Shown: positions 6,295 to 32,000, numbered from the stretch's first letter. The stretch is 32,000 nt of DNA from Flavobacteriaceae bacterium (GCA_965224465.1 OZ245049.1:2520001-2552000), one strand, 5' to 3'. Numbers and translations are program-made. Notes: generated from the sequence alone by a model not told the origin.

Positions 6295-7293
6295 TTATTC
6301 ATTCTCTTTGTTTTTCCAATAAACATCAATAAGCTCAAATATTTTTTTTTCTTTATTTAACCTATATCTTATTGAATTTCCTTTTAAACAATTCCCCGAT
6401 TCTTCCTTATTTATTAGCCATGAAGAGATCGAAACAAAGTTTTTGTCGCTGAAATCATAATCGTAAGTATTTTCATTTTCTTTAAGCATCTCAACGCATT
6501 TTATTGAAGCGTTATTTAAAAGTAAATCGTATTCAAATTCACTAAACCCGTTTACCATTTTAAAAGGCTTTATTTTATTGTTATAATAACTAAAAGTTTG
6601 AATATCATTTCCGTCTCCAACAATATCATTCGTTATGATAAGAAAATCATTTTCTCCAAATTCATAAATTGATAAAGTCCAAGACCCATCAACAACTTGA
6701 ATTCCTATTGTATTTGGTTTTATATATTTTATGTTATTATACATTTCAGTTGTATCAATTATAAAATTATTGTCCTCGATAAACTCAACTGTTTTTTCTC
6801 TATCTTTTTTACTCCATCCCCAACTACGCATAGTTGTTTCAGGTAATATTTTAAGGATATTAAGCAAGGTTTTGTTTTCTATGTAATTAATATTAATTGT
6901 ATCTCTATAACCGAATAATTTTGAATTTGTAGCTTCGGAATGAATTAAGTTAACTTTCTTTTCAGTTTCAACCTGTTTAATTAGGTTCACGTTTTGATTG
7001 TCAATTTCAGAAAGGATTATTTTAATATTTCTTTTAGGTGTGTACCATTTTTTTTTAATAAAATATTTTTGAAGTTCTACGTTTTTAAAAACGTAACCTT
7101 TTCGAGCATAAATTTCGTTTCTTATTAATTTTAGCTCATTTGAAGTTTTAGAACTCAATTCAGATTTAGTGAATAATTTAGATAGATTTTTAGTGTTATT
7201 TTTTAAACTTTCAGATGTCTCGTGTTCTTTTTTTGTATTACAAGAAATTAAAAAGACGAATATTGTAAGTGTTACTAGGGTTAAATTCTTCAT
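6295..7293 (-). CDS. YARHG-domain lipoprotein of unknown function
   Basis: Signal peptide with lipobox (FVFLISCN) and a YARHG-type motif (IRNEIYARKGYVFKN). The rest is unrecognisable. Confidence 0.6.
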   Translation of the reverse strand: MKNLTLVTLTIFVFLISCNTKKEHETSESLKNNTKNLSKLFTKSELSSKTSNELKLIRNEIYARKGYVFKNVELQKYFIKKKWYTPKRNIKIILSEIDNQNVNLIKQVETEKKVNLIHSEATNSKLFGYRDTININYIENKTLLNILKILPETTMRSWGWSKKDREKTVEFIEDNNFIIDTTEMYNNIKYIKPNTIGIQVVDGSWTLSIYEFGENDFLIITNDIVGDGNDIQTFSYYNNKIKPFKMVNGFSEFEYDLLLNNASIKCVEMLKENENTYDYDFSDKNFVSISSWLINKEESGNCLKGNSIRYRLNKEKKIFELIDVYWKNKENE

Positions 7294-7363
7294 AGTAGTT
7301 TTTGGTTACGCACAACACCCATACCCCCACAATAACAATCTTAAAGTTAAAGGTATATCCGTT

Positions 7364-7524
7364 ATATCAATTACAATCCAAAACAACCGCTATAAATAAG
7401 TTGTTTTACGTTCTAGTGTTGTTAAAAAACGGGACGATAGCTACGGCTATCTCTAGATTTTTCGCCTAGCTAAAACAAAAAATAATTCCTTTTCTAAACC
7501 TTCACTTGGAAATGCATTTGATAT
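7364..7524. repeat. Intergenic MITE-like repeat, copy A
   Basis: Aligns along its whole length with 8579-8739. The ends are imperfect inverted repeats (atatcaattacaatccaa vs reverse complement atatcaaatgcatttccaa). An internal 6-bp palindromic hairpin, gatagc-tacg-gctatc, is present. Confidence 0.6.
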
Positions 7525-7563
7525 AATTGGACGAGGGTATCGTTGTTTTTTTGTTAAAGGTAT

Positions 7564-7671
7564 CTAAATTCCCAAGAGGATATCCTTTTTTTTAATATTT
7601 ATAGCGATAGTTTTAGTGTGAATCTCTGTTATCTTAGGAGAGGCGTATCCTAAGATATTTTGTATATCGAC
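7564..7671 (-). pseudogene. Degenerate C-terminal remnant of a tyrosine recombinase/integrase
   Basis: The reverse frame reads VDIQNILGYASPKITEIHTKTIAINIKKK... This resembles the integrase C-terminal box (I/V)QxLLGHsSxkTTEIYTH, but with His->Tyr and catalytic Tyr->His changes. Stops lie immediately upstream (TAG) and there is no start codon. It sits inside a ~460-bp ORF-free gap. Confidence 0.3.
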
Positions 7672-7860
7672 CTCCTCCTAAATACGTAACTATTCTACCA
7701 AGCAACCTTTTAATTTGAGTTCTATTACAAGAGAAGGAAACCGTTTAAATTCGAATGAAATGTTTTACACCTTGAATAGAAGCTATTTACAAACTCGCAT
7801 ACCTATTGATTACAAAATGTATTTGAACCGATGGAGTCATTTTTAATTGCCTTAAAAAAC

Positions 7861-8514
7861 TTACAATTCCCCATTCCATTCTGCATAAAACTGCTTTAGA
7901 AACCCCTCCATATAGCAATGTCTTTCTTGGGCAATTTTTTTTCCAGTATCGGTATTCATAGTATCTTTTAGCAGTAGCAATTTTTCATAAAAATGATTGA
8001 TAGTAGGTGCTGTTGATTTTTTATATTCTTCTTTTGTCATATCCAATTTAGGCATAATATCAGGATTGTACATTGTCCGGTTTTTAAATCCCCCATAATT
8101 AAAACAACGCGCTATTCCGATGGCACCAATAGCATCCAAGCGATCTGCATCTTGAATCACATCTAATTCTGGTGAAGAAAAAGTTTGTTTAAAATTACCA
8201 CCTTTATAGGATATATTGTTGATAATCTGGCTTACATGCGTTATTTCCTTCTGATGTACCTCTAAGGATTCCAAAAAACTACACGCAACTTTAGGCCCTA
8301 CAGTTTCATCACCATTATGGAATTTAGCATCTGCAATATCGTGTAACAAAGCGCCTAATTCTACGATAAACAAGTTCACTTTTTCGTTTTCAGCAATTAG
8401 TTTTGCATTGTTCCAAACACGTAAAATATGAAACCAATCATGACCTCCTTCGGCATCTTTTAACGTTTGTTGTACAAATTTTTTAGTTTTTTGAATAATT
8501 TCTTGATTTGTCAT
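7861..8514 (-). CDS. HD-domain metal-dependent phosphohydrolase
   Basis: 217 aa with the HD motif region (GHDWFHILRV ... LLHDIAD ... DADRLDAIG), typical of the YedJ-like HD superfamily. Confidence 0.85.
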   Translation of the reverse strand: MTNQEIIQKTKKFVQQTLKDAEGGHDWFHILRVWNNAKLIAENEKVNLFIVELGALLHDIADAKFHNGDETVGPKVACSFLESLEVHQKEITHVSQIINNISYKGGNFKQTFSSPELDVIQDADRLDAIGAIGIARCFNYGGFKNRTMYNPDIMPKLDMTKEEYKKSTAPTINHFYEKLLLLKDTMNTDTGKKIAQERHCYMEGFLKQFYAEWNGEL

Positions 8515-8540
8515 CTTGATAAAATATAGGCTAAAATAAG

Positions 8541-8564
8541 AAAATCCGCACGATGGCGGATTTT
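8541..8564 (-). terminator. Possible intrinsic terminator downstream of the bacilliredoxin gene and repeat copy B
   Basis: 9-bp stem aaaatccgc/gcggatttt with a 6-nt loop. On the minus strand it is followed by cttatttt. Confidence 0.35.
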
Positions 8565-8578
8565 AATGTATGAGTATA

Positions 8579-8739
8579 ATACCAATTACAACCCAAAATA
8601 ATGGATATAAATAGTTTATTTTACGTTCCAGCATTGTTGAAAAATAGAACGATAGCTAAGGCTATCCTTAGATTTTCCGCCTAGCTAGAACAAAAAATAA
8701 TTCTATTTCTAAACCGTCACTTGGAATTGTATTTGGTAT
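8579..8739. repeat. Intergenic MITE-like repeat, copy B
   Basis: Full-length homologue of copy A. Terminal inverted repeats are ataccaattacaacccaa and, on the reverse complement, ataccaaatacaattccaa. The internal hairpin is gatagc-taag-gctatc. Confidence 0.6.
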
Positions 8740-8773
8740 AACTCAAAAGTTTTAGGTTACAGCTTAAAGTTTC

Positions 8774-9184
8774 TTAACAAAACTCTTCATAAGCAGCTAC
8801 TAAATTAGAGGCAATTACCTCAGCTGGACGTCCTTCAATATGATGACGCTCTAACATGTGAACCAAAGCTCCATCTTTAAACAATGCAATGGCAGGTGAT
8901 GAAGGAGGAAACGGTGCTGTTTGCGCACGCACAGCAGCGACAGCTTCAGCATCAACTCCAGCAAAAACTGTTGTTATTTGTGTAGGTATTTTATCAAATT
9001 TCAAAGAAGCAATGGCTCCTGGGCGCGCTGTACCAGCAGCACAACCACATACGGAGTTAATCATAACTAAGGTAGTTCCTTCTTTTTTTAATGCTTCTGT
9101 TACAGCATCAGCTGTTTGTAATTCTGTAAAACCTGCGTCTACAAGCTCTTGACGCATTGGATTCACTATTTCTGGTGGATACAT
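8774..9184 (-). CDS. BrxA/BrxB-family bacilliredoxin (YphP/YqiW, DUF1094)
   Basis: Conserved N-terminus [14 protein letters not shown] and the CGC redox motif (NSVCGCAAG). I place the start at ATG 9184, since the track start at 9217 is a TTG that adds 11 poorly fitting residues. Confidence 0.85.
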
Positions 9185-18564: not shown

Positions 18565-19101
18565 TTGAGTTTAAATAAACTAATAAAACAATGTGCCCAC
18601 AACGATCGAAAGGCACAAGCCTATATTTACCAACTATACGGGGGTAAGTTATTTGCCATATGCCTAAAATATTCGAACAACAAACAAGAGGCACAGGATA
18701 GTTTTCAGGACGGTTTTATTACCATATTTAACAAAATTGGACAGTTTAATTTTAAAGGCTCCTTTGAAGGATGGATGAAGCGCATAATGGTGAATACTGT
18801 TTTACAAAAATACCGTAAAAAAAGTGTTCTAAACATTGTCACAGAGGAAATTCCAGACGAAGTAATTGTAGAAGTAAATGAAGAGGAAATTTCTTTAGAC
18901 ATGCTTCTTAAATCAATTCAGGAATTACCAGAAAGGTACAGAATGGTTTTTAACTTATACGTATTAGATGGCTATTCTCACAAGGAAATAGCAGGCATGT
19001 TGAACGTAGCAGAAGGCACTTCAAAATCCAATTTATCAAGAGCACGAATTATATTAAAAGAAAAAATAGAATTAGTTTTAAGTGACCAACAATCTGGTTA
19101 G
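18565..19101 (+). CDS. ECF-type RNA polymerase sigma-70 factor
   Basis: Region 2 (FQDGFITIF...FEGWMKRIMVNTVL) and region 4 (YRMVFNLYVLDGYSHKEIAGMLNVAEGTSKSNLSRAR). The only in-frame start is TTG at 18565. Confidence 0.88.
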   Translation: MSLNKLIKQCAHNDRKAQAYIYQLYGGKLFAICLKYSNNKQEAQDSFQDGFITIFNKIGQFNFKGSFEGWMKRIMVNTVLQKYRKKSVLNIVTEEIPDEVIVEVNEEEISLDMLLKSIQELPERYRMVFNLYVLDGYSHKEIAGMLNVAEGTSKSNLSRARIILKEKIELVLSDQQSG

Positions 19102-19108
19102 AAAGCCC

Positions 19109-20311
19109 ATGAGAGAAGAGAAAAACATAGATAGATTGTTTCAAGAAAAGCTAAAAGATTATGAGGTGTTCCCTCCTAGTAAATCTTGGCGCATTATTGA
19201 AAAAAGTATAAAGCAACCCCCAAAGAAAAGAATTCTTCCATTGTGGTTTCGCATTACAAGTATTGCTGCAATGCTCCTTGCGTTTATCACCCTTGGAAAT
19301 AAACACATTGTCCCAAACGAATTTTCTGGATTTCAGAAATTCATGTTTAAATCTAAAGATTCCATAAAAAGCATCGTAAAGAACAAAAAAAACCTACTTA
19401 TTGCAAAAAAAAATAAAAACAAAAATAACGCTGGGCTAAGTGCTAAAATTATTCCTCTTAACATAGATGATAACCGCACAGAAACAAGTACAAATAACAT
19501 TTCTAGCACAGAACAAAATTCATTAGAAAAACCAGCGAAAACATTGCTATTAAAAGCAGCAGAAGGTTTTCCTCTAAAGGAGCATAGCTCCTTACCAGAA
19601 CAAACAAAAGAGAAACGCTGGTCCATTGCCTATAATGTAGCTCCTATATATTTCAGCTCCTTTGGATCCAGTAAGTCACCTATAGATAATAAATTTGAAA
19701 ACAATTCTACTTCTGGGAAAGCTAATATCTCACACGGAATTAAAATCACTTTTAAATTAAACAATAAATTTAGCGTACAATCTGGCGTTAACTTAGTAGA
19801 CATGGGCTACAAGACTAACAATGTTTTCCTCCCAACAGGAATAACTGCGGTACGCTTATCTGACATCTCAGGCACCCGTGTAAATACCCCCTCAAAAAGC
19901 GCCTCTCTAGAACAGCGCTATAGCAGACAAAGCCCAATTACAAAAGGGAATACGGGTAGCATAGATCAATTATTTGGTTATATAGAAGTTCCGTTAGAAA
20001 TAAAATACCAATTAACGGACGGGAAATTAGGACTAAATATCGTAGGAGGATTTAGCACCTTATTTCTAAATAAAAACGAATTACTAATTGAAGTAGATGG
20101 TTTTAAAACCAGTATTGGAGAGGCTACCAATTTAAGAGACATCAACTTTAGCGGAAATATAGGTATGGATATCGATTATTTAATCCATAAAAACTTATAC
20201 ATAAACGTAAGTCCTATGCTAAAAGTACAAACAAATACCTTTTCTAAAAATACAGGCGATTTTCAGTCGTATTATTTAGGAATTTACACCGGGTTAAACT
20301 TTAAGTTTTAG
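19109..20311 (+). CDS. Anti-sigma-like N-terminal segment + TM helix fused to a C-terminal beta-barrel-like (porin-type) domain
   Basis: The start is 8 nt after the sigma-factor stop. One TM helix (LWFRITSIAAMLLAFITL). The C-terminal half has alternating-hydrophobic strands and ends in ...GLNFKF, an aromatic terminal residue typical of OM barrels. ATG 19109 is preferred over the GTG at 19082. Confidence 0.55.
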   Translation: MREEKNIDRLFQEKLKDYEVFPPSKSWRIIEKSIKQPPKKRILPLWFRITSIAAMLLAFITLGNKHIVPNEFSGFQKFMFKSKDSIKSIVKNKKNLLIAKKNKNKNNAGLSAKIIPLNIDDNRTETSTNNISSTEQNSLEKPAKTLLLKAAEGFPLKEHSSLPEQTKEKRWSIAYNVAPIYFSSFGSSKSPIDNKFENNSTSGKANISHGIKITFKLNNKFSVQSGVNLVDMGYKTNNVFLPTGITAVRLSDISGTRVNTPSKSASLEQRYSRQSPITKGNTGSIDQLFGYIEVPLEIKYQLTDGKLGLNIVGGFSTLFLNKNELLIEVDGFKTSIGEATNLRDINFSGNIGMDIDYLIHKNLYINVSPMLKVQTNTFSKNTGDFQSYYLGIYTGLNFKF

Positions 20312-22509: not shown

Positions 22510-23061
22510 CTAATCTTCAGTAACACTACCCCAATTTTCACCAGATTTGATACGGTATAATTGCATTTCAGAAATACCGAATTGTTTGGCAATCATTTTC
22601 ATACGAGTCTTTCTGTTTGGATCATTAATTTTCCGTTTAATCAATTTTACTTTTGCCTCGGTCAATTTAGAATACTTTCTAACTTTTGAAGCTTTAATAA
22701 CTAAAGGATTGCTTTTTTGATGTTGAGCAACTTCTGGTCTTGTCAACCATTTCAAATTATCTGATGCATTGTTTACCTTGTCAAAATCCAAGTGCGTTAC
22801 ATATTTTTTATCCTCTGGATTTTCTAAAAATGCTTTTGCAATTGCTCTATGAACATAACAGGAAGTCCTTTTCCCTCCGTTCTTAGAAATCCAAAACATT
22901 TTATAACCACCTGTCAAGTTTGTCTTCACTAATGCAAATTCATCTTGATCCACTTTACGTGAACTCACGCGACCGTAATTTGAAACTTCAAACAACTCAT
23001 TCTCACTCCATAAGTCCTCTCTGTAAGGCTTCCAAACCTCGTTTTTAAAATCTATTATCAT
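22510..23061 (-). CDS. NUMOD4 + HNH_3 homing-endonuclease-like protein with C-terminal HTH
   Basis: NUMOD4 pattern (WKPY...FEVSNYGRVSS), HNH_3 pattern (VHRAIAKAFL...HLDFDKVNNASDNLKW) and a C-terminal HTH (IAKQFGISEMQLYRIKSGENW). ATG 23061 is preferred over the GTG at 23085. Confidence 0.75.
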   Translation of the reverse strand: MIIDFKNEVWKPYREDLWSENELFEVSNYGRVSSRKVDQDEFALVKTNLTGGYKMFWISKNGGKRTSCYVHRAIAKAFLENPEDKKYVTHLDFDKVNNASDNLKWLTRPEVAQHQKSNPLVIKASKVRKYSKLTEAKVKLIKRKINDPNRKTRMKMIAKQFGISEMQLYRIKSGENWGSVTED

Positions 23062-23452
23062 ATAACCATTATTTAAGTACGTCACAAATATACAACTAAA
23101 TTACTCGAATTCAAACGACTACAACCATTTACAAACAGTTACATACGTAAGTAAGTATTTAACAACCAACTAAGCCCTTGCTATTGCTGTAATTTTGTAC
23201 TGTTGAATTGAATTAATAATTGTTGATTTCTTAACAAACACCTTATGAGTTCTTTAAAAAACAGAATTAAGTTAAGTAAACAGCTTCTAAAAATCGACAA
23301 AATGAGAAAAACACCAGAAATATACGGAATTAAAGAATACATACATTCTCACCTATAAATCATTATTAAAGCATCTAAACAACATAGAAAAATAATCTAA
23401 ATAATAACCAAAGACTTTACATATTAAAGCAACATTTAAAAATAAAAAAATC

Positions 23453-23788
23453 ATGAGCACACTTAGAAACAAAGTACAGTTAATCGGAAACTTAGGAAAC
23501 GACCCAGAAATTATCACTTTAGAAAGCGGTAAAAAATTAGCGAAATTTTCTTTAGCTACCAACGAAAGCTATAAAGATAGTGATGGACAAAAACAAACAA
23601 TTACAGATTGGCATAATATAATCGCTTGGGGAAAGACTACCGATATTATCGAAAAATATTTAACAAAAGGAAAAGAAGTTGCCGTAGAAGGAAAACTTAC
23701 CAATCGCTCTTACGAAACCAAAGAAGGAGAAAAACGATACATCACAGAAGTTGTAATTAATGAAGTTATGATGCTGGGGAGTAAATAA
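23453..23788 (+). CDS. ssb: Single-stranded DNA-binding protein, short form (OB fold only)
   Basis: NKVQLIGNLGNDPE...TDWHNIIAWGK...VAVEGKLTNRSYE...RYITEVV is the canonical SSB OB fold. The protein is 111 aa and ends without a Gly-rich linker or acidic tip. Confidence 0.9.
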   Translation: MSTLRNKVQLIGNLGNDPEIITLESGKKLAKFSLATNESYKDSDGQKQTITDWHNIIAWGKTTDIIEKYLTKGKEVAVEGKLTNRSYETKEGEKRYITEVVINEVMMLGSK

Positions 23789-23991: not shown

Positions 23992-26361
23992 TCAATTATT
24001 ACTTTTAATACGGTCTTGTTCGTCTTTAGATGAATTTGACCGCTCTTTTTCTTTACTATATTTTGAACCAAAATTGTAAGAAACTTGTAAATACACATTT
24101 TGACGCGACCAATCACTAATTATGTCAGCATCTATATTATTATATTTAATACTCCCCTTAAACTTTCTTTTTAGAATTTCTCCTACCCCTAAATTTACTT
24201 TCATTTTATCATTCATAAACTTTTTACTCAACCCAAAACTTATTCCCGCCAACCAATCATGCTCTATAAGCCCCTGTAAACCTCCTGTTGAATAATATCC
24301 TGTCATTTCAGAATTAATACCCCAAGGAAATTTGTATTCTAAATTTGTATACCAAGTCAAACTCCATTTATCGATATCAAAATTTGGCTGTAGATTTTGA
24401 GATTTGTACCTGTTATAGTTAACTATAAACCCAGTATAACCTTCTAGTTCACTCACGAAATTTATGGGGGCAAACGCTTTAAAATTCCAATTTTCTCTTT
24501 TTGAAATATTAATTGTCGAACGTGATGTTTGGGCTGAAACATTATTTTGTGTAACAATTTCAAATAAAGCATCTGACGTATCTTTGTAACCAATTGAGAA
24601 AAAAGGTTGATCATTATATGTCATATTAAATTGAAAACTATTTGTAAATGCAGGTTTTAAATTCGGGTTTCCTTCTTCAAAAGTATAGGGGTCATAATAA
24701 TAAACAAAGGAATTTAAAGAGCTATACGAAGGTCTTTGTATACGATAACTATACGACAGGTTTACTCCAAAAGTTTTAGATAACTTTCTTCCAATATTAG
24801 CACTAGGAAAAAATTTTGATATCTTACGTTTTTTAACCTCAGATGTATTTGTAGACTTTCCTATCGTCTCACTTTCTTCCCATCTCAGTCCTCCAGAAAA
24901 AGACCATTCATCCATAATAGAAGTGAATTTAGTATATATAGCACTAATATCTTCGTCAATTAAAAAACGATTGCTTTGAGTATCATTTAGGATAAAATTA
25001 CCACTGTTATTTTGCACAAACGACTGTAGGTTACTATCTGTATTTATTTTCGAGAATTTCGAACCAAACATCCAATTAAAATTATCGTTAAAAGTATGTT
25101 TGTAATCCAATTTATAAGTTAAAATATGATATGCACCATTTTGTAAATAACGTTGATTGCTATAATCTATAGTGCTTAACTCTCTTTTAAATAAATCATT
25201 TGTATTATCGTTGTTATAATCTATATAATTTACATCAAAAACAACTTTCTCTTTACCGTTATCAAACTTATAAAAAGGATTTATATTAAAAGTTACTCTC
25301 TCTTTATCAAAATCACTTTCTGTAAATAATGAATTAGATGAACTATCTCCTAATATTATAGTGCTATTAGAAGTTACCCTGTCCGAGTCTGTAAAAATCC
25401 TACTTGTACTTACTCCTACACTATGTTCATTGTTAATATAATAATCTAACGCTCCACTCAACCTAAATGTTTTAGGGTGAAAAGGTGAAATTGAAGCTTG
25501 ACTATACAAGAGTTCATTAACTTTACGATTGATAAATAAATCTTCTCTCCATGCAGATTTTTTATATCCTGTACTTACCTGCCAATTTAATTTGTTTTTA
25601 TAACTCGCAATAGAAAAGCTCGTTCCATATTCAAATTCATTGTCATACCCCGTATTTAGTTTAATGCTTCCGTTTGTACCAAGTTTTACATTTTTTTTTA
25701 AAATGATATTAATAATTGCACCTGAACCTTCGGCGTCAAACTCAGCACCAGGCTGTTGAATAAGCTCTACTTTAGCAATATTATCTGCAGGTAAATCGCG
25801 TAACAACGTATCTGTATCCATATAATTTGTCGTCTTCCCGTTAATGAGAATTCTTACACCTTGTTGCCCCGCGTAACTAATATTCCCATTTGTAACAATA
25901 ATTCCTGGTATTTTTTTCATAACATCCTGTAAGTTAGAGTTCATCATTTCAGAGTTTTCAAGGTTAATGATCAACTTTTCTGCTGTTTGGCGAATTACAG
26001 GCCTCGTACTTTTTATAACAACTTCATTTAAAGTTTGAGACTCTTCCTTTAAGGTAAAATTTAATTTAATTTCCTTATTTTTTTCGGATAACATGAAAGG
26101 CTTCGATTTCTGAATTTCAAAACCAAGTACTGACACTACTATTCGATAAGATCCATCTGAAATATTTTCAAAGGCATAATACCCAATATCATTACTACTT
26201 GTTCCTTTGACTACTTTATTGTTTAATTTATACAATACAATATTAGAAAAAGGTAATGATTCACCCGATTGTTCAATGATAACTCCAGAAATCCTATTTT
26301 GAGAAAAAACAAAATTCATATTGAATATAAAACATATAATAATTATTAATTTAATTTTCAT
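23992..26361 (-). CDS. Outer-membrane beta-barrel protein with carboxypeptidase-regulatory-like and plug-like N-terminal domains (TonB-dependent-receptor-like)
   Basis: Signal peptide (MKIKLIIIICFIFNMNFVFSQ), a CarbopepD_reg-like domain (ISGVIIE...GYYAFENISDGSYRIVVSVLGFE), a plug-like segment (DVMKKIPGIIV...GVRILINGK), then a long region of beta-strand periodicity. It is the last gene of the operon. Confidence 0.8.
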   Translation of the reverse strand: MKIKLIIIICFIFNMNFVFSQNRISGVIIEQSGESLPFSNIVLYKLNNKVVKGTSSNDIGYYAFENISDGSYRIVVSVLGFEIQKSKPFMLSEKNKEIKLNFTLKEESQTLNEVVIKSTRPVIRQTAEKLIINLENSEMMNSNLQDVMKKIPGIIVTNGNISYAGQQGVRILINGKTTNYMDTDTLLRDLPADNIAKVELIQQPGAEFDAEGSGAIINIILKKNVKLGTNGSIKLNTGYDNEFEYGTSFSIASYKNKLNWQVSTGYKKSAWREDLFINRKVNELLYSQASISPFHPKTFRLSGALDYYINNEHSVGVSTSRIFTDSDRVTSNSTIILGDSSSNSLFTESDFDKERVTFNINPFYKFDNGKEKVVFDVNYIDYNNDNTNDLFKRELSTIDYSNQRYLQNGAYHILTYKLDYKHTFNDNFNWMFGSKFSKINTDSNLQSFVQNNSGNFILNDTQSNRFLIDEDISAIYTKFTSIMDEWSFSGGLRWEESETIGKSTNTSEVKKRKISKFFPSANIGRKLSKTFGVNLSYSYRIQRPSYSSLNSFVYYYDPYTFEEGNPNLKPAFTNSFQFNMTYNDQPFFSIGYKDTSDALFEIVTQNNVSAQTSRSTINISKRENWNFKAFAPINFVSELEGYTGFIVNYNRYKSQNLQPNFDIDKWSLTWYTNLEYKFPWGINSEMTGYYSTGGLQGLIEHDWLAGISFGLSKKFMNDKMKVNLGVGEILKRKFKGSIKYNNIDADIISDWSRQNVYLQVSYNFGSKYSKEKERSNSSKDEQDRIKSNN

Positions 26362-26385: not shown

Positions 26386-26715
26386 TTATTTAATTTGTTC
26401 AATTTCAGACTTAACTTTTTCAATTTCGTCATCATATCCTATATTACTTCTATAGATTAATTTAAAATGACTTTCTCTAAGGTATATTTTTAAAAAATAT
26501 CTCTCATTATTTTTTATATACTTTATTTTCCCATCTCCCAATTCATCAAAATCAGAAAAATTGGTTTTTAAAATTTTATGGATTTTAATAAAATCTTCTT
26601 TATTTATTGTAACAGAATAGATTGTCTCATATTTTGATTGCATTAAAACTTCATTTTTTGAGCTACAACTAGCAAAAAAAAAGAGGATACTACTGCAAAT
26701 AATTCTTATATTCAT
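26386..26715 (-). CDS. Small lipoprotein of unknown function (possible immunity or accessory factor)
   Basis: Signal peptide plus lipobox (ILFFFASCSS). 109 aa. 5 nt separate it from the ABC gene stop and 24 nt from the OM barrel start. Confidence 0.55.
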   Translation of the reverse strand: MNIRIICSSILFFFASCSSKNEVLMQSKYETIYSVTINKEDFIKIHKILKTNFSDFDELGDGKIKYIKNNERYFLKIYLRESHFKLIYRSNIGYDDEIEKVKSEIEQIK

Positions 26716-26720
26716 AATAT

Positions 26721-28910
26721 TTAAATATTTAATTGATTTTTCACTAATGTATAATAATGTTGTTTCTTATTTATTAATTCCAAGTGGGTTCCTCTTTCTA
26801 CAACAGTACCATTAGATAAAACAACTATTTGATCTGCATTTCGAACAGTACTTAATCTATGTGCTATTATTACAACCGTTTTGTCTTCAAATAATTTCTG
26901 TAAATTAGAATGTACTTCCATTTCATTAGTTGAATCAAGCGCTGAAGTAGCTTCATCAAGAAATATGTATTTTGGATTTTTATAAATAGCTCTTGCAATT
27001 AAGATCCGCTGTCTTTGCCCCCCCGACAAACCATTTCCTCCAGACCCAATCTTAGTAAGTTCCTTTAAAGGTAATGAATTAATAAAACTAAACAAATTAA
27101 CTGCTTTTAAGGCTTTAAATAATTTATCTTTATCAATTTTAATTTCACTCATCACGATGTTTCTTTGTATTGTATCATTAAAAATATAACCATCCTGCAT
27201 AACAACACCTGAATTTTCACGAATACTTTTAGCAGATAATTTTTTTATATCATCAGACCCGTAAAATATCTCACCGTCTATTGTATCGAAAAATTTAAGA
27301 AGTAATTTCATTAAAGTGGTTTTCCCACTACCACTATGCCCTACGATTGCAGTGATTTTTCCTTTTGGTATATTAATACTTACATTTTCTAAAATAAAAT
27401 TTTCAGACAATTGATTATATTTGAAATTTAGATTAATCAAATCTATATCTACTGGTCCATAGCTTGGTTCTAGCGTATTATTGATATTAAAATCCTCTTC
27501 GTCCTGAGAATACACCTCACTTAACCTGTCAAAGCTTAAGAGTGCATCTTGTTGTGACCTAAAGAAATCCAAAAGTTGATGTACGGGAGAATTCATTTGC
27601 CCAATAATAAAAGAAACACTGAGAAGCGCCCCCAAAGTCATGTGATTATTAATCACATAATAAGCTGCAAGAAAAGTAACTAAAATATTTTTCAATTGAT
27701 TAAAAAAAACAAAACCGACAGACTGAAACTGTTCGATTTTTAATGACATAATATTAACTTTTAAAAGCTTATTCTGAATATCAATCCATTCATTTTTTTT
27801 ATACTCTTCGTACTGATTCAATTTCATTTCTTTAATCCCATTATAAAACTCAAATATTGCTTCTTGACTTTCCGACCGAGCTTTGAATAGTTTGTAGTCA
27901 ACTAACTCTCTCTTTTTCAACCAAAAGACTGACCAAAATATAGAAACCATTGTTAAAACCGAGAATAACAAAAATAAATAAAAATCATAATATAACAAAA
28001 TCATTGAATACAACATCAAAGTAATAAAGGAAAAAAAAGTTAAAATACTTTCAGATGTTAAAAATTGTTCAATCTTGACATTATCTTGTATACGCTGATT
28101 AAAATCGCCTGAGTTTTTTGTGTCGAAAAAACTAATTGGTAAACTTAAAATTTTGTCTAGGTATGAATAGATGATGTTAACACTAAGTTTAGTCCCAATT
28201 ATTAAAGTAAACCAGTTTCTCAAAATATTTATACACATTATACCTATAAAAACAAATAACTGAGCTAAAACTATCAATCCTAATAAATTAATATTTTTTT
28301 TATTAACACCTCTATCAATTAATGCTTCAGTTAAAAAAGGTAAAGTTATATTTAAAACACTTCCCATAAAGAATAACCCAAAGAGTAAAATTATTTTTTT
28401 CTTAAAAGGACTAAGAAGCTCAATAATTGGTCTAATTCTTCTAACAAAACTATTTTTATTTTTATTTTCAGAAAACTTAAGAGTTGGACTCAAAAAAAGT
28501 GCTACTCCATAATTATCATCATTTAACCATAAATTACAGAAATCTTTCCTTGATAATTTAATTTTTCCATGTGCAGGATCTACAATTAGAAATTCTGTTT
28601 TATTTTTATTAATCGCTTCTAGAACCAAAAAATGATTCATATTCCAATATAAAATACATGGTTCCGTAAAATTTTCAATCAATTGCTCTATATTTAATTT
28701 TAAACAATGTGTTTTAAAACCAATTTTTTTAGCCGCATGTATTATCCCCAACATTGAGACCCCATCCTTTCCGATTTGACACAGTTCTCTCAAACTGTGT
28801 AATCTATAATTATTTCCGAAATAGTTCGTGACCATACTCAATGATGCAGGGCCACAATCCATTTGATCATGTTGTCTTACCAAGGTTATATTTTTTTTTC
28901 TTTTGAGCAT
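26721..28910 (-). CDS. Peptidase-C39-domain ABC transporter (double-glycine leader cleaving bacteriocin/lantibiotic exporter, LanT/SunT type)
   Basis: N-terminal C39 motifs with an intact catalytic Cys (QHDQMDCGPASL) and a His region (NHFLVLEA...VDPAHG). Six-TM domain. Walker A GHSGSGKTT, signature LSGGQRQR, Walker B IFLDEATSALD, H-loop IIAHRLS. Confidence 0.93.
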   Translation of the reverse strand: MLKRKKNITLVRQHDQMDCGPASLSMVTNYFGNNYRLHSLRELCQIGKDGVSMLGIIHAAKKIGFKTHCLKLNIEQLIENFTEPCILYWNMNHFLVLEAINKNKTEFLIVDPAHGKIKLSRKDFCNLWLNDDNYGVALFLSPTLKFSENKNKNSFVRRIRPIIELLSPFKKKIILLFGLFFMGSVLNITLPFLTEALIDRGVNKKNINLLGLIVLAQLFVFIGIMCINILRNWFTLIIGTKLSVNIIYSYLDKILSLPISFFDTKNSGDFNQRIQDNVKIEQFLTSESILTFFSFITLMLYSMILLYYDFYLFLLFSVLTMVSIFWSVFWLKKRELVDYKLFKARSESQEAIFEFYNGIKEMKLNQYEEYKKNEWIDIQNKLLKVNIMSLKIEQFQSVGFVFFNQLKNILVTFLAAYYVINNHMTLGALLSVSFIIGQMNSPVHQLLDFFRSQQDALLSFDRLSEVYSQDEEDFNINNTLEPSYGPVDIDLINLNFKYNQLSENFILENVSINIPKGKITAIVGHSGSGKTTLMKLLLKFFDTIDGEIFYGSDDIKKLSAKSIRENSGVVMQDGYIFNDTIQRNIVMSEIKIDKDKLFKALKAVNLFSFINSLPLKELTKIGSGGNGLSGGQRQRILIARAIYKNPKYIFLDEATSALDSTNEMEVHSNLQKLFEDKTVVIIAHRLSTVRNADQIVVLSNGTVVERGTHLELINKKQHYYTLVKNQLNI

Positions 28911-28912
28911 AA

Positions 28913-29407
28913 TTAAATTTGATCAAATTCACTAAAACAATATTCGTTAAAGCTATTTACAATTTGTTTATAAAAAATCGTTTTTTTTCGTATAATTAAA
29001 CACGGAATATCCTTTTTATATAACTCATAATTGGTCAGAATAACATGATCTTCGAAATTTGCTTTACAAATTCTATTCCACAAATTAACTCTAGTTTTCC
29101 CTCTTGTTTTTCTGAAATTTATAGAATTTTCCAATTGATTGTGAGTTTGTAAAAAAATCGCATCGTAATAACCAACAAGCTCTTTCATAAAAATGATTAT
29201 TGTTCTTATAACTTTATAATCTTTTGGTGGATTTTTAATTCCACATTTCAATGATAACTCTAAAATATTTTTGGTTCCCCCACATAAAGTATCATAACTA
29301 ACATCTGATTTACTAAGAATAAAGCAATATTTTATTCCGCTATCCGACACAAAATAGTAACTATTTAATCCTTGCTTTTTTATTTTATAAAATTTTGAAA
29401 TCTCCAT
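28913..29407 (-). CDS. Hypothetical 164-aa protein, translationally coupled within the RiPP operon
   Basis: The ATG at 29407 overlaps the upstream gene by 23 nt, and the stop lies 2 nt before the ABC start. I recognise no motif. There is no signal peptide or TM segment. Confidence 0.5.
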   Translation of the reverse strand: MEISKFYKIKKQGLNSYYFVSDSGIKYCFILSKSDVSYDTLCGGTKNILELSLKCGIKNPPKDYKVIRTIIIFMKELVGYYDAIFLQTHNQLENSINFRKTRGKTRVNLWNRICKANFEDHVILTNYELYKKDIPCLIIRKKTIFYKQIVNSFNEYCFSEFDQI

Positions 29408-30692
29408 TTTCGATTAATTCTAATTCATTAACAATAATACCTTTGTTGTTTATTAAAACCCTTAAAAAGTACATAATTACATCTTTCGGGAAATTATTAA
29501 ATTCTTTCAAAATGGATTTAACACTAACTTCTTTAGAATTATTAATCATTTTAATTATACCTATTAATTCAGGGAAATATTTAAAAGAAAGCCTCGTACC
29601 ACGAACGTACAGAATTAACCTATCCTCAACTTTCTCAACTTTTATCATATACAAATTATTTGATGTGATTATTTTACTTTCTAAATTAGGGAAATAATCT
29701 TTAGTACTATCCATTTTACCAAAATAACTCAAAGGTATACTCTGCCACCCCCCATTGCTTGTCAAACATTTTTTGTATTCATTATAAGTTTGTTTTAAAA
29801 AATCTTGTAGTGGTGATTTTAAAGCTTTCTCACTAACATTTAGTGTATTTATAAAATCAAAAAAAGTGTTTTCATTGTTGATATAATCTTTTTGACATGG
29901 AATTATACTTTGATCATTTTTAATAAATAAGTTCTTAATAGTATCTATCATTAATTTTGAGTAGTTATACTTTGTGGGGTTGTTAAACCAAAGGGTTACA
30001 CCAATAGAAAAGCTTTCTGAACATCCAACATGATGCTTATCCCATGGCATAGAATACAAATCCCCCCTACCAAATTCATGTTTTTCAGCATATTCCAACA
30101 ATGGTTCAATATTTCTATTATTTGAAAGCCCCTTACCAACTTTACTATATGTTTTTTCATCCCAAACATACATTTGTTTTTTTCCTGGCCCTAAATGGTA
30201 ATGTAGTACATTTTCTCCTCTATTATCTCTATGAATCCCAAGAGGGGTCCATCCATAATTACCTATGAAAGTAGTAAGTTCTATTCCCCAAGGAGGTATC
30301 CCAATAATATCAAATAATGGTTGTACTGTTTTCAATATATATCCCGCCAAAATTTCCGAATGTTTTTCTCCATAATTAGTTATTATACCAAAATTTTCAC
30401 CGAATACTCGTTCACAATATGATTGTATACCTTCATCGCTACTTAATTCATTTTTCTCAATTAATTTAATGATTTCTGAGTCACTCATTTCTATGCCGTC
30501 AACATATAACCTAAATCCATTACTTATATCTAGTCTATTTATTCTAGATTTAAGCATTTCAAGAACACCTTCATTTAATACATTCACTAAATCATTCGAC
30601 ATGCACCCCTCATAAACTTGTGTCTTTGTAAATGAAAAATTTTTCGCCATAAAAGACTTCCACCAATCGTGATTAAAGTTATTTGTTTTCAT
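29385..30692 (-). CDS. JmjC/cupin-4 (ribosomal-oxygenase-like) Fe(II)/2-oxoglutarate-dependent oxygenase
   Basis: HxD...H facial-triad arrangement in a cupin context: WTPLGIHRDNRGENVLHYHLGPGKKQMYVW, then GRGDLYSMPWDKHHVGCSESFSIGVTLWF. By recollection this parallels E. coli YcfD/RoxA: GVGPHLDQYDVFIIQGTGRRRWRVG ... PGDILYIPPGFPHEGYALENAMNYSVGFR. The N-terminal (DWWKSF..) and C-terminal extensions are also ROX-like. No alignment was computed. Confidence 0.6.
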   Translation of the reverse strand: MKTNNFNHDWWKSFMAKNFSFTKTQVYEGCMSNDLVNVLNEGVLEMLKSRINRLDISNGFRLYVDGIEMSDSEIIKLIEKNELSSDEGIQSYCERVFGENFGIITNYGEKHSEILAGYILKTVQPLFDIIGIPPWGIELTTFIGNYGWTPLGIHRDNRGENVLHYHLGPGKKQMYVWDEKTYSKVGKGLSNNRNIEPLLEYAEKHEFGRGDLYSMPWDKHHVGCSESFSIGVTLWFNNPTKYNYSKLMIDTIKNLFIKNDQSIIPCQKDYINNENTFFDFINTLNVSEKALKSPLQDFLKQTYNEYKKCLTSNGGWQSIPLSYFGKMDSTKDYFPNLESKIITSNNLYMIKVEKVEDRLILYVRGTRLSFKYFPELIGIIKMINNSKEVSVKSILKEFNNFPKDVIMYFLRVLINNKGIIVNELELIENGDFKIL

Positions 30693-31022: not shown

Positions 31023-31059
31023 GAAAAATGTAAGGATGTTTTACAGAAAACACCCTTAC
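31023..31059 (-). terminator. Intrinsic terminator/attenuator immediately downstream of the precursor peptide genes
   Basis: The minus-strand RNA would fold GUAAGGGUGUUUU-CUGU-AAAACAUCCUUAC (13-bp stem with one G-U pair), followed by AUUUUUC. It begins 21 nt after the stop of the second peptide gene. Confidence 0.5.
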
Positions 31060-31079: not shown

Positions 31080-31208
31080 CTAGCTTTCTACTTTCACTTC
31101 CTTTTTCTTTTCTTTCTTTGGTCTCTCATGCCCCCCTAATAAGGTTTGACTTTCAAGTGCCGATAATTCCTCAATATCAAGAAATTTTTTTGGATTTAAT
31201 TTTTTCAT
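31080..31208 (-). CDS. RiPP precursor peptide 2 (42 aa), double-glycine leader
   Basis: Hand-translated and below the ORF-track size cutoff: MKKLNPKKFLDIEELSALESQTLLGG|HERPKKEKKKEVKVES. It is a paralogue of the adjacent peptide. The leader fits the LSxxELxxIxGG-type consensus. Confidence 0.75.
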   Translation of the reverse strand: MKKLNPKKFLDIEELSALESQTLLGGHERPKKEKKKEVKVES

Positions 31209-31232
31209 AATAAAAATTTTAATTTGTAAATT

Positions 31233-31358
31233 TTACTTTGTTTCAACTTTTTTCTCTTTCTTTTTATCTGGTCTTTCGTGCCCTCCCTTTAAGGTTTGGC
31301 TTTCTAAAGCTGATAATTCTTGAGTATCTAAGAATTTTTCTGGTTTTGAATTTTTCAT
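31233..31358 (-). CDS. RiPP precursor peptide 1 (41 aa), double-glycine leader
   Basis: Hand-translated: MKNSKPEKFLDTQELSALESQTLKGG|HERPDKKKEKKVETK. Across the 16 shared codons ELSALESQTL and GGHERP the two genes differ at 7 positions, all synonymous. Confidence 0.75.
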   Translation of the reverse strand: MKNSKPEKFLDTQELSALESQTLKGGHERPDKKKEKKVETK

Positions 31359-31478
31359 ATTAAAAATATAATTAAGTTAAACCTACTCATTGCTGGCTTT
31401 TCGGTTTCCGCCAATTTTTACTGCAGTAGTATTGTTTAACAAATAAATAATATTGTTATATAAATTCCAAAAATGTTT

Positions 31479-31612: not shown

Positions 31613-32000
31613 ATGCGGAAACAACGGAACCCCTATCAATTTTTAAGAACTTATTGCTTAAGAACCCCTCTTTTAGCCCTGAATATCTTAGATGATGTAT
31701 TTGGAAATAGACGGATTGATAAAAAAGCCTTAAGAACCTACTGGAATGATTCAGTAATTAAAGAAGCATTATTTTTAGCCTCTGCGGATTTACACCAACA
31801 ACTAAATCTGCTGTTTTTGGACCGCATAGAAAATACAAAAAAAGAGGAACGGCTGGTGCATAGTTTTTTAAAATACCTCCTTAGAGCTTCCACAAGGTGT
31901 ACTCCTTTTGGATTATTTGCGGGGATATCTATTGGGACCTTTGATACACATACAGCCATTCACATAGCTACCATAAATAACCATCGTAGAATTACGCAAT
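31613..32000 (+). CDS. Lantibiotic dehydratase (LanB family), N-terminal 129 codons; continues beyond the window
   Basis: Absent from the ORF track (no stop in the window). Translation: MRKQRNPYQFLRTYCLRTPLLALN...VIKEALFLASADLHQQL...FLKYLLRASTRCTPFGLFAGISIGTF. The LRTPLL and R.(S)TR.TPFGLF..(I)S.G motifs are the hallmark N-terminus of LanB/NisB-type dehydratases (NisB has YLRSTPFGLFSETSIG). An in-frame ATG at 31502 is an alternative start. Confidence 0.85.
   Translation, partial: MRKQRNPYQFLRTYCLRTPLLALNILDDVFGNRRIDKKALRTYWNDSVIKEALFLASADLHQQLNLLFLDRIENTKKEERLVHSFLKYLLRASTRCTPFGLFAGISIGTFDTHTAIHIATINNHRRITQ

Follow-up and report, generated by a model that had tools for sequence, protein, structure and literature searches.

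The question raised by this locus is which enzyme acts on the products of two small tandem genes. The window analyzed, a stretch of 32,000 nucleotides from a Flavobacteriaceae bacterium (GCA_965224465.1 OZ245049.1:2520001-2552000), has on its minus strand two short open reading frames (ORFs), referred to as precursor genes A and B, that encode peptides with a double-glycine (GG) leader and a hydrophilic core. The start of a LanB-type dehydratase gene lies on one side of this pair, and a gene for a JmjC-like oxygenase of 435 amino acids (aa) lies on the other. Based on comparisons among related loci, the oxygenase appears to be the conserved partner and the signature gene of the precursor family. 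On balance, A and B are probably tandem precursors in an operon for peptides that are synthesized ribosomally and modified after translation (RiPPs), where the oxygenase would modify the core under guidance of the leader, followed by cleavage after the GG and export. Three features carry this interpretation:

31233..31358, minus strand: precursor gene A, 41 aa, with a 26-aa double-glycine leader MKNSKPEKFLDTQELSALESQTLKGG and the core HERPDKKKEKKVETK (from the ORF list, translation, and leader homology)
31080..31208, minus strand: precursor gene B, 42 aa, with a 26-aa leader MKKLNPKKFLDIEELSALESQTLLGG and the core HERPKKEKKKEVKVES (from the ORF list and translation)
29385..30692, minus strand: JmjC-type, ribosomal-oxygenase-like Fe(II)/2-oxoglutarate oxygenase, 435 aa (from the fold and the iron triad)

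Precursor genes and their association with the oxygenase

For the precursor family, 78 genome loci were fetched with the oxygenase alignment as query, such that the oxygenase is present in all of them by construction. A leader model, built from 15 leaders that include two from the window, identified 90 small leader-bearing ORFs in 58 of these loci (1–6 per locus). All 90 share the strand of the oxygenase gene; nearly all are located within 1.5 kb upstream of it, and a few are just downstream. The reciprocal search of metagenomes with the leader found 12 marine loci, and the oxygenase is present in all eight that have enough downstream sequence (as a partial gene at a contig end in one case). 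Seven of these eight also have a gene for a 164-aa protein and a gene for an ATP-binding cassette (ABC) exporter with a C39 peptidase domain (C39-ABC), six also have an outer-membrane barrel gene, and most have a lipoprotein gene. Among the genome loci, co-location with the oxygenase was found in 64–67 for the C39-ABC exporter, 46–48 for the barrel, 19 for the lipoprotein, and about 10 for the 164-aa protein. The trio of precursor(s), oxygenase, and exporter recurs across Bacteroidota and in some Betaproteobacteria. The first-pass annotation of this DNA made no mention of the oxygenase, although it is located directly downstream of the precursors. That annotation had also asked for homologous small ORFs beside C39 transporters or LanB genes in related genomes, and homologous leader-bearing ORFs are present in the 58 genome loci and the 12 metagenome loci. 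A and B are genuine genes rather than chance ORFs.

The leaders in this family share a K-rich N-terminus, an FLxxxxLSxLE motif, and the final GG. In the clade alignment, the invariant positions are F9, L10, L15, S16, A17, L18, E19, T22, G25, and G26. The 26-aa leader ends with GG and is conserved while the cores vary, and a C39-ABC gene is present as a neighbor. These patterns agree with the earlier view that A and B are double-glycine-leader precursors whose operon also encodes a C39-peptidase ABC exporter.

The cores of A and B are 15 and 16 aa in length, respectively, and both are rich in Lys and Glu. Each has six Lys, one Arg, and four acidic residues; Cys, aromatic residues, and Gly are absent from both. 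Each core has a single hydroxyl residue (Thr penultimate in one and Ser last in the other), and Thr40 and Ser42 are the sole Ser/Thr positions of the precursor cores. The computed monoisotopic masses of the unmodified cores are 1879.064 and 1978.132 Da. The tandem arrangement on the minus strand, the translations, and these residue counts are identical to those reported previously, and we agree that such hydrophilic cores (hydropathy −2.4 to −2.9) are atypical for bacteriocins and lanthipeptides. The description of the ORFs as untracked needs to be qualified, because both peptides already exist as called proteins on an NCBI/ENA contig and are not unannotated everywhere. Among 5.8 billion proteins, a word-indexed search with precursor B recovered the two window peptides and no others. 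Gene B, 24 nt downstream of gene A, lacks a separate cis-motif, and the two genes are therefore probably co-transcribed.

Comparison between the two genes provides information on their evolution. Over the 16 codons that encode ELSALESQTL and GGHERP, seven codons differ, all of these differences are synonymous, and there is no amino acid change. The earlier count of seven silent substitutions is thus correct for codons, but the number of nucleotide differences is eight, since TTA and CTT differ at two positions. In codons 2–13, eight codons differ, with six replacement and two synonymous changes. Only about 23% of the sites in the 16 conserved codons are synonymous, and the probability that 7–8 random changes would all be silent is roughly 1e-5. 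This pattern argues, as proposed before, for purifying selection on the leader end and the first four core residues (HERP). The synonymous divergence over these codons is about 0.6–0.7, suggesting that the paralogs are old and constrained rather than recent duplicates. The proposal that HERP is a motif shared by the family did not hold up. Neither GGHERP nor GxHE was found in the 78 genome loci, HERP was seen in no other locus searched, and the closest relatives have NAETD, GVDGED, or TSMIES at this position.

The cores in this family are short, with a median length of 21.5 aa, and low in complexity (entropy of 2.75 bits, compared to 3.58 bits for the leaders), with self-identity raised at an offset of two, indicating alternating patterns. 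The types observed include Lys/Glu (K/E), polyK, V/Q/R, (VK)n, V/T/E, (EK)n, polyQ, and His/Asp. Core type tracks the enzyme clade: K/E cores are found at 62–71% enzyme identity, polyK at 42–45%, V/Q/R at about 42%, VKVK or VTVE at 38–40%, and polyQ or His/Asp at 30–34%. The His/Asp cores are also present in Chromobacterium and Vitreoscilla. The window cores are most similar to those of Zobellia (L008) and the metagenome locus L087, in both of which V-x-V-E-K follows a K-block, and the feature shared in the closest clade is a (K/E)6-7 block flanked by V-x-V. Among 78 cores, Val is present in 72, Glu in 63, Asp in 60, and Lys in 55, and an aromatic residue is present in 18. In the closest clade, Cys-rich cores (e.g., TTKCKCKCKCKEEATS, KCKCKCKCSGGNDPQ, and TTHPHENIKCKNKKCPHRDREQQ) also occur on the same leader, as in L006 (9647..9799), L007 (9667..9822), L091 (194..346), and several cases among L083–L090; these cores may form disulfides or thioethers or bind metal.

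The oxygenase and the proposed chemistry of the peptides

The 435-aa protein has no match in Pfam or NCBIfam. The word-indexed protein search returned 114 homologs, none of which has a Pfam domain, and all of those with a named source are from Bacteroidota. Among 1.84 billion cluster representatives (clustered at 50% identity), a profile search found 294 at E <=1e-30 and 1231 at E <=1e-3. The AlphaFold model of the protein has a predicted local distance difference test score (pLDDT) of 89.8 and a predicted template modeling score (pTM) of 0.87. In Foldseek comparisons of this model with PDB, the top matches are the ribosomal oxygenases YcfD/RoxA, NO66, and MINA53 (about 430 aligned columns, E values near 1e-15 to 1e-12, and 10–14% sequence identity), followed by YxbC and FIH. 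The model has the architecture expected of ribosomal oxygenases, including the double-stranded beta-helix, the 2-His-1-carboxylate site, the basic residue, a helical domain, and a winged-helix-like C-terminal domain. The enzyme alignment has invariant H154-x-D156 ... H221, as well as H164, H166, and K172. In a profile comparison with RoxA (YcfD) of Escherichia coli, H154/D156/H221 fall on the iron ligands H125/D127/H187, and K172 falls on R140, the residue that binds 2-oxoglutarate. In PF08007 (JmjC_2), 15 of 28 relatives have weak, sub-threshold matches (best E 5.7e-4), and searching PDB with a sequence profile of the oxygenase alignment gave no meaningful match. Taken together, the model and alignment indicate a divergent JmjC-fold Fe(II)/2-oxoglutarate oxygenase that has the ribosomal-oxygenase architecture and falls outside PF08007 at threshold. 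The residues H154, D156, and H221 would form the Fe(II)/2-oxoglutarate center, K172 would bind 2-oxoglutarate, and 2-oxoglutarate-dependent hydroxylation is the activity that the model points to.

The C-terminal domain of the modeled oxygenase (residues 341–421) has the order beta-beta-beta-beta, alpha, beta, alpha, alpha. PqqD-like RiPP recognition elements (RREs) have three strands followed by three helices and bind the leader. The modeled domain resembles these elements in its beta-beta-beta/helix order, and the oxygenase has no PqqD or RRE match in Pfam. Of note, two or more oxygenase-like ORFs stand in tandem in 25 of the 78 loci. Most of these have two or three full-length paralogs, as in L019, L028, L029, L033–L037, L045, L048, L051, L052, L054, L055, L061, L063, L065, L068, and L070–L072. 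Such arrangements suggest heteromers or several residue specificities.

In the mechanism proposed, the leader (FLxxxxLSxLE...GG) would dock on the oxygenase, possibly on its C-terminal domain, and the Fe(II)/2-oxoglutarate center would oxidize side chains of the core. The C39 domain would then cut after Gly26, and the product of 15 or 16 residues would be exported across both membranes. YcfD/RoxA is the L16 arginine hydroxylase and NO66 and MINA53 are histidine hydroxylases; these enzymes act at the C3 position in basic, Lys-rich proteins. By analogy, the likeliest reaction would be C-hydroxylation at one or several residues. Side-chain hydroxylation is favored because the closest structural relatives, as well as the RiPP enzymes BipG and CzlI, are hydroxylases. 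For the target, HERP contains both residue types (Arg and His) that ribosomal oxygenases hydroxylate. However, the (K/E)6-7 block with V-x-V is shared in the closest clade and HERP is genome-specific, so Lys, Glu, or Val in that block would be a more parsimonious target.

Several observations weigh against this interpretation. The leader model detected no precursor in 20 of the 78 loci. No residue type is universal among the cores, and several polyQ cores have neither acidic nor basic residues; therefore, either enzyme specificity differs between clades or a generic position is addressed. The profile match to RoxA/YcfD is weak (E 0.003, probability 11%), and the window protein has no Pfam match even at E 10, PF08007 included. 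The basis for a recognition role of the C-terminal domain is solely the order of its secondary-structure elements, and for the hydroxylation chemistry it is solely the fold. Moreover, the clade-specific 164-aa protein could perform a further step.

The other enzyme candidate in the window is encoded by a divergent gene that runs off its end:

31613..32000, plus strand: LanB-type dehydratase N-terminus (Lant_dehydr_N, 9.1e-20)

A rival hypothesis makes LanB the partner of the precursors. Under this hypothesis, it would glutamylate and eliminate the single C-terminal Thr or Ser, giving a Cys-free, dehydrated, lanthipeptide-like product with dehydrobutyrine or dehydroalanine. The dehydratase gene starts 255 nt from precursor A, each window core has exactly one Ser or Thr, and some same-leader peptides at LanB-adjacent loci contain Cys together with Ser/Thr. 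However, although the adjacency recurs, it was observed in only one of the 78 genome loci (L007; one further distant match is in L029) and three of the 12 metagenome loci (L085, L086, and L088). No LanB lies within 10 kb in L001–L006, L008, or L009, and none lies in the 6 kb that was fetched around L080–L082, L087, and L090; all of these loci retain the K/E precursors, the oxygenase, and the exporter. The LanB modules in L007 (2812..8593, minus strand) and L085 (690..5764, minus strand) include LanB of about 760 aa, a separate elimination-domain protein of about 290 aa, and a tetratricopeptide repeat (TPR)/AraC regulator of about 560 aa. Each module also encodes its own GG peptides, whose leader differs; it has no visible transporter and may share the neighboring C39-ABC exporter. 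Furthermore, several K/E cores beside LanB lack Ser/Thr (e.g., NEDIKVEKKKEKKAAIQ, VEDVVVDKRKEKKEKNRR, and NAVECIKVEKKKEKKRAK), the window cores lack the Cys expected of class I lanthipeptides, and no LanC domain was found among the scanned ORFs of the window, which ends at 32000 inside the LanB gene. Because LanB is absent from most relatives, is accompanied by its own GG peptides, and is found beside K/E cores without Ser/Thr, it looks like a recurrent neighboring module and not the maturase of these peptides. Dehydration by LanB is thus considered improbable.

Alternatively, the oxygenase may act on the peptides by another oxidation, such as Calpha-hydroxylation leading to backbone cleavage or C-terminal amidation, desaturation, epimerization, or cross-linking. 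The lack of a universal core residue fits chemistry at the backbone or at a generic position, and RiPP Fe/2-oxoglutarate enzymes offer precedents in MicC (PMC12912966) and in the HEXXH enzymes PflC and PosC (PMC12636437), which cleave the backbone, and, as described in papers that cite Xia et al. (2025), in aromatic-aliphatic macrocyclization (PMC12797325, PMC12710340). Nevertheless, the closest structural relatives are side-chain hydroxylases, and the window cores lack the aromatic residues and Gly that known cross-linking and amidation chemistries use, such that this alternative seems unlikely, if less so than dehydration by LanB. It is also conceivable that the peptides are unmodified double-glycine peptides, similar to class II bacteriocins or signaling peptides, that are cut and exported while the oxygenase acts elsewhere. 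A leader and a C39-ABC exporter are sufficient for the export of unmodified peptides (PMC6363468). This hypothesis has a small chance of being correct, as no other gene is tied so closely to the precursors as that of the oxygenase (with strand and order kept across phyla, and often with two or three tandem copies) and the cores are far too hydrophilic for typical membrane-active class II bacteriocins. Finally, A and B are short (41–42 codons) and located in AT-rich, purine-rich DNA of low complexity, with no evident Shine-Dalgarno sequence, as might be seen in chance open frames. Against that explanation stand the exclusively synonymous pattern over 16 codons, the conservation of the leader in 70 other loci, and the presence of a conserved upstream motif and a downstream hairpin, and the comparative data effectively refute it.

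The upstream element and the gene neighborhood

In the interpretation favored here, with A and B as precursors modified by the oxygenase, the following features of the window make up the rest of the operon:

31376..31415, minus strand: Rfam DUF805b-like cis-element, made up of a 4-bp stem with a 12-nt loop GGAAACCGAAAA and, downstream, a GAGUAGG box
31030..31059, minus strand: terminator-like or attenuator hairpin, located between precursor B and the oxygenase gene, with a 13-bp stem and then a T-run
28913..29407, minus strand: 164-aa protein with no family, with a start that overlaps the oxygenase gene end
26721..28910, minus strand: peptidase-containing ABC transporter (Peptidase_C39, 3.8e-35; ABC_membrane; ABC_tran)
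26386..26715, minus strand: predicted lipoprotein, 109 aa, with a signal peptide and an FFASC lipobox (from translation)
23992..26361, minus strand: TonB-dependent-receptor-like outer-membrane barrel, 789 aa (CarbopepD_reg, Plug, OMP_b-brl_3)

The cis-element ends about 18–22 nt before the ATG of gene A. Its full-length match to Rfam RF02914 is just sub-threshold (33.2 bits compared to the gathering score of 35.6; E 7.5e-8). A custom covariance model scores the window copy at 49.5 bits, with this copy being among the 13 training sequences, and finds the element in 15 other fetched loci. The common form has a covarying 4-bp stem, the loop GGAAnCCGAAAA, and then GAGUAGG, and the covariation is observed among copies that precede precursor genes. 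Copies are located in L007 (8839), L021 (4569), L039 (9305), L042 (9267), L044 (8936), L046 (304), L047 (5121, 5445, and 5748), L050 (9365), L053 (9588 and 11671), L057 (11932), L067 (9631), L075 (18400), and L085 (5944). For every copy examined except that of L075, where the following ORF has no GG leader, the ATG of a GG-leader gene is found 12–21 nt further on. There is one element per precursor in L047 (three) and L053 (two), and in L021 and L057 the element also precedes GG peptides of other types. Among the closest LanB-less relatives, the element is absent from L001, L002, L006, L008, L087, and L090. Between the hairpin and GAGTAGG, spacer length differs by as much as about 6 nt, an argument against a fixed −35/−10 promoter pair of the extracytoplasmic function (ECF) type. 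The element may generally control precursor genes in Bacteroidota, either as an RNA or as a DNA site. Such occurrence before GG-leader genes of several types gives a functional context to an orphan cis-regulatory candidate of Rfam, and precursor genes of Bacteroidota, whatever their class, could be located with the help of this motif.

Downstream of the precursors, the order on the minus strand is the hairpin, the oxygenase, the 164-aa protein, the C39-ABC exporter, the lipoprotein, and the outer-membrane barrel. The hairpin has a folding energy of −14.1 kcal/mol and is the only such site found, compared to 0.2 expected from shuffles. Comparable strong hairpins are present in L008, L010, L013, and L023 and not in every relative. 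The 164-aa gene appears to be translationally coupled to the oxygenase gene. Its product has no family match in Pfam or NCBIfam, and the word-indexed search of 5.8 billion proteins returned only itself. Homologs with 33–43% identity are found in nine genome loci by tblastn, in ten by clustering (which added L020), and in eight metagenome loci. The conserved motifs of this protein are KDY, DA..Q.HNQ.E, and RG.sR.kLW.R, and it is confined to the K/E-core clade and L020. A single-sequence structure model has a pLDDT of 40 and is unusable. The exporter has the MDCGPA and NHF motifs, which provide the catalytic Cys and His of a C39 peptidase, and is predicted to cut after the GG and to export the peptide.

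The rest of the window contains housekeeping genes, such as those for the leucyl- and tyrosyl-tRNA synthetases (LeuRS and TyrRS), and has a G+C content of 34.5% compared to 27.9% in the cluster. An HNH_3/NUMOD4 homing-endonuclease-like gene and a short single-stranded DNA-binding protein (SSB) gene are located at 22510..23788. Their position where the low-G+C cluster ends is a hint that horizontal transfer brought it in. About 4 kb from the barrel gene, at 18565..20311 on the plus strand, an ECF-type sigma factor gene is followed by an overlapping gene for a 409-aa protein that has no Pfam match and is possibly an anti-sigma factor. In the related locus L001, the region upstream of the precursors (about 6570..8950) has genes for a ThiF-family protein, a LuxR-type (GerE) regulator, and a weakly FeeM-like N-acyl amino acid synthase. 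These genes are also present in other close relatives (12–14 loci per gene) and not in the window, and they may represent a signaling or regulatory module.

A broader hypothesis, which is plausible but held tentatively, is that these loci belong to a widespread, as yet undescribed RiPP class with at least 294 enzyme clusters in Bacteroidota and some Betaproteobacteria. In this class, the sole signature enzyme would be a JmjC oxygenase recruited from ribosomal-protein modification, the low-complexity cores would be oxidized at multiple sites under guidance of the leader, and DUF805b would be a control element of GG precursors in Bacteroidota. The products would be secreted poly-hydroxylated peptides, and those of the His/Asp type encoded beside TonB-dependent receptors might be metallophores.

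Comparison with known systems

The emphasis on HERP and LanB in the first-pass annotation was misplaced, and the interest of this locus lies in a RiPP-like family, defined by a JmjC oxygenase, that appears uncharacterized. If the oxygenase modifies the peptides, a JmjC enzyme alone would define a RiPP family. The cores (polyampholyte, polyQ, alternating V/K or E/K, and His/Asp-rich) would be unlike those of characterized RiPPs, the ribosomal-oxygenase fold would be linked to natural-product biosynthesis, and substrate-tolerant peptide hydroxylases would become available for engineering. Expression of a precursor together with a single enzyme in E. coli makes the family easy to test.

The 435-aa enzyme shares with YcfD, NO66, and MINA53 the fold over about 430 columns, the HxD...H triad, and the basic 2-oxoglutarate-binding residue. 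It differs from them in having no Pfam match at threshold, in the low sequence identity noted above, in being encoded in an operon with leader peptides and an exporter instead of alone, and in the predicted substrates, which are small secreted peptides and not ribosomal proteins. Also comparable are BipG, a JmjC ornithine hydroxylase in the biphenomycin RiPP pathway (PMC12707348), and CzlI, a JmjC Phe hydroxylase of the curacozole RiPP pathway (PMC11575548), which are likewise Fe(II)/2-oxoglutarate JmjC enzymes and hydroxylate residues of ribosomal precursor peptides. However, BipG and CzlI perform accessory steps in actinobacterial pathways that have several enzymes and act on aromatic or heterocyclic cores, whereas the oxygenase described here is the only recognizable modifier and the cores are hydrophilic and of low complexity. 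A RiPP core in which a polyGln stretch is hydroxylated at multiple sites is also known (PMC12636437). Although polyQ cores are found in one branch of the present family, the enzyme in that system has an unrelated fold and metal-binding motif, and the hosts are Pseudomonas.

Among GG-leader precursors, those of Bacteroidetes graspetide and radical-SAM clusters (PF14406, TIGR04139, and TIGR04149) have a similar leader style, with a K-rich N-terminus, FL, L-S-x-L-E, and GG, as well as export by a C39-ABC transporter and an outer-membrane protein. The PF14406 graspetide systems of Bacteroidetes are exported through a C39-ABC transporter and a TonB-dependent-like outer-membrane protein (PMC8939145). 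Precursor B has a weak match to PF14406 Bacteroid_pep (E 0.0016, 19.2 bits, below the cut-off of 25) and precursor A has none. The scanned window ORFs, unlike graspetide and radical-SAM clusters, include no ATP-grasp or radical-SAM gene, and the cores lack the Thr/Ser/Asp/Cys patterns of graspetides. A graspetide origin was rejected on the basis of the missing ATP-grasp gene and the sub-threshold PF14406 match.

The peptide family is apparently undescribed in the literature. The macrocyclization studied by Xia et al. (JACS, 2025) is described in a citing paper as an aromatic-aliphatic cross-link formed by an alpha-ketoglutarate dioxygenase (PMC12797325). As so described, this chemistry differs from that proposed here, because only 18 of 78 cores have an aromatic residue and the window cores have none, making such a cross-link impossible there; the enzyme families may nevertheless overlap. 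Bregman et al. (2025) described JmjC-RRE fusions with bacterial homologs in RiPP-like contexts (PMC12710340). The operon of A and B resembles these systems in having a bacterial JmjC homolog in a RiPP-like context, possibly with a recognition-element-like domain.

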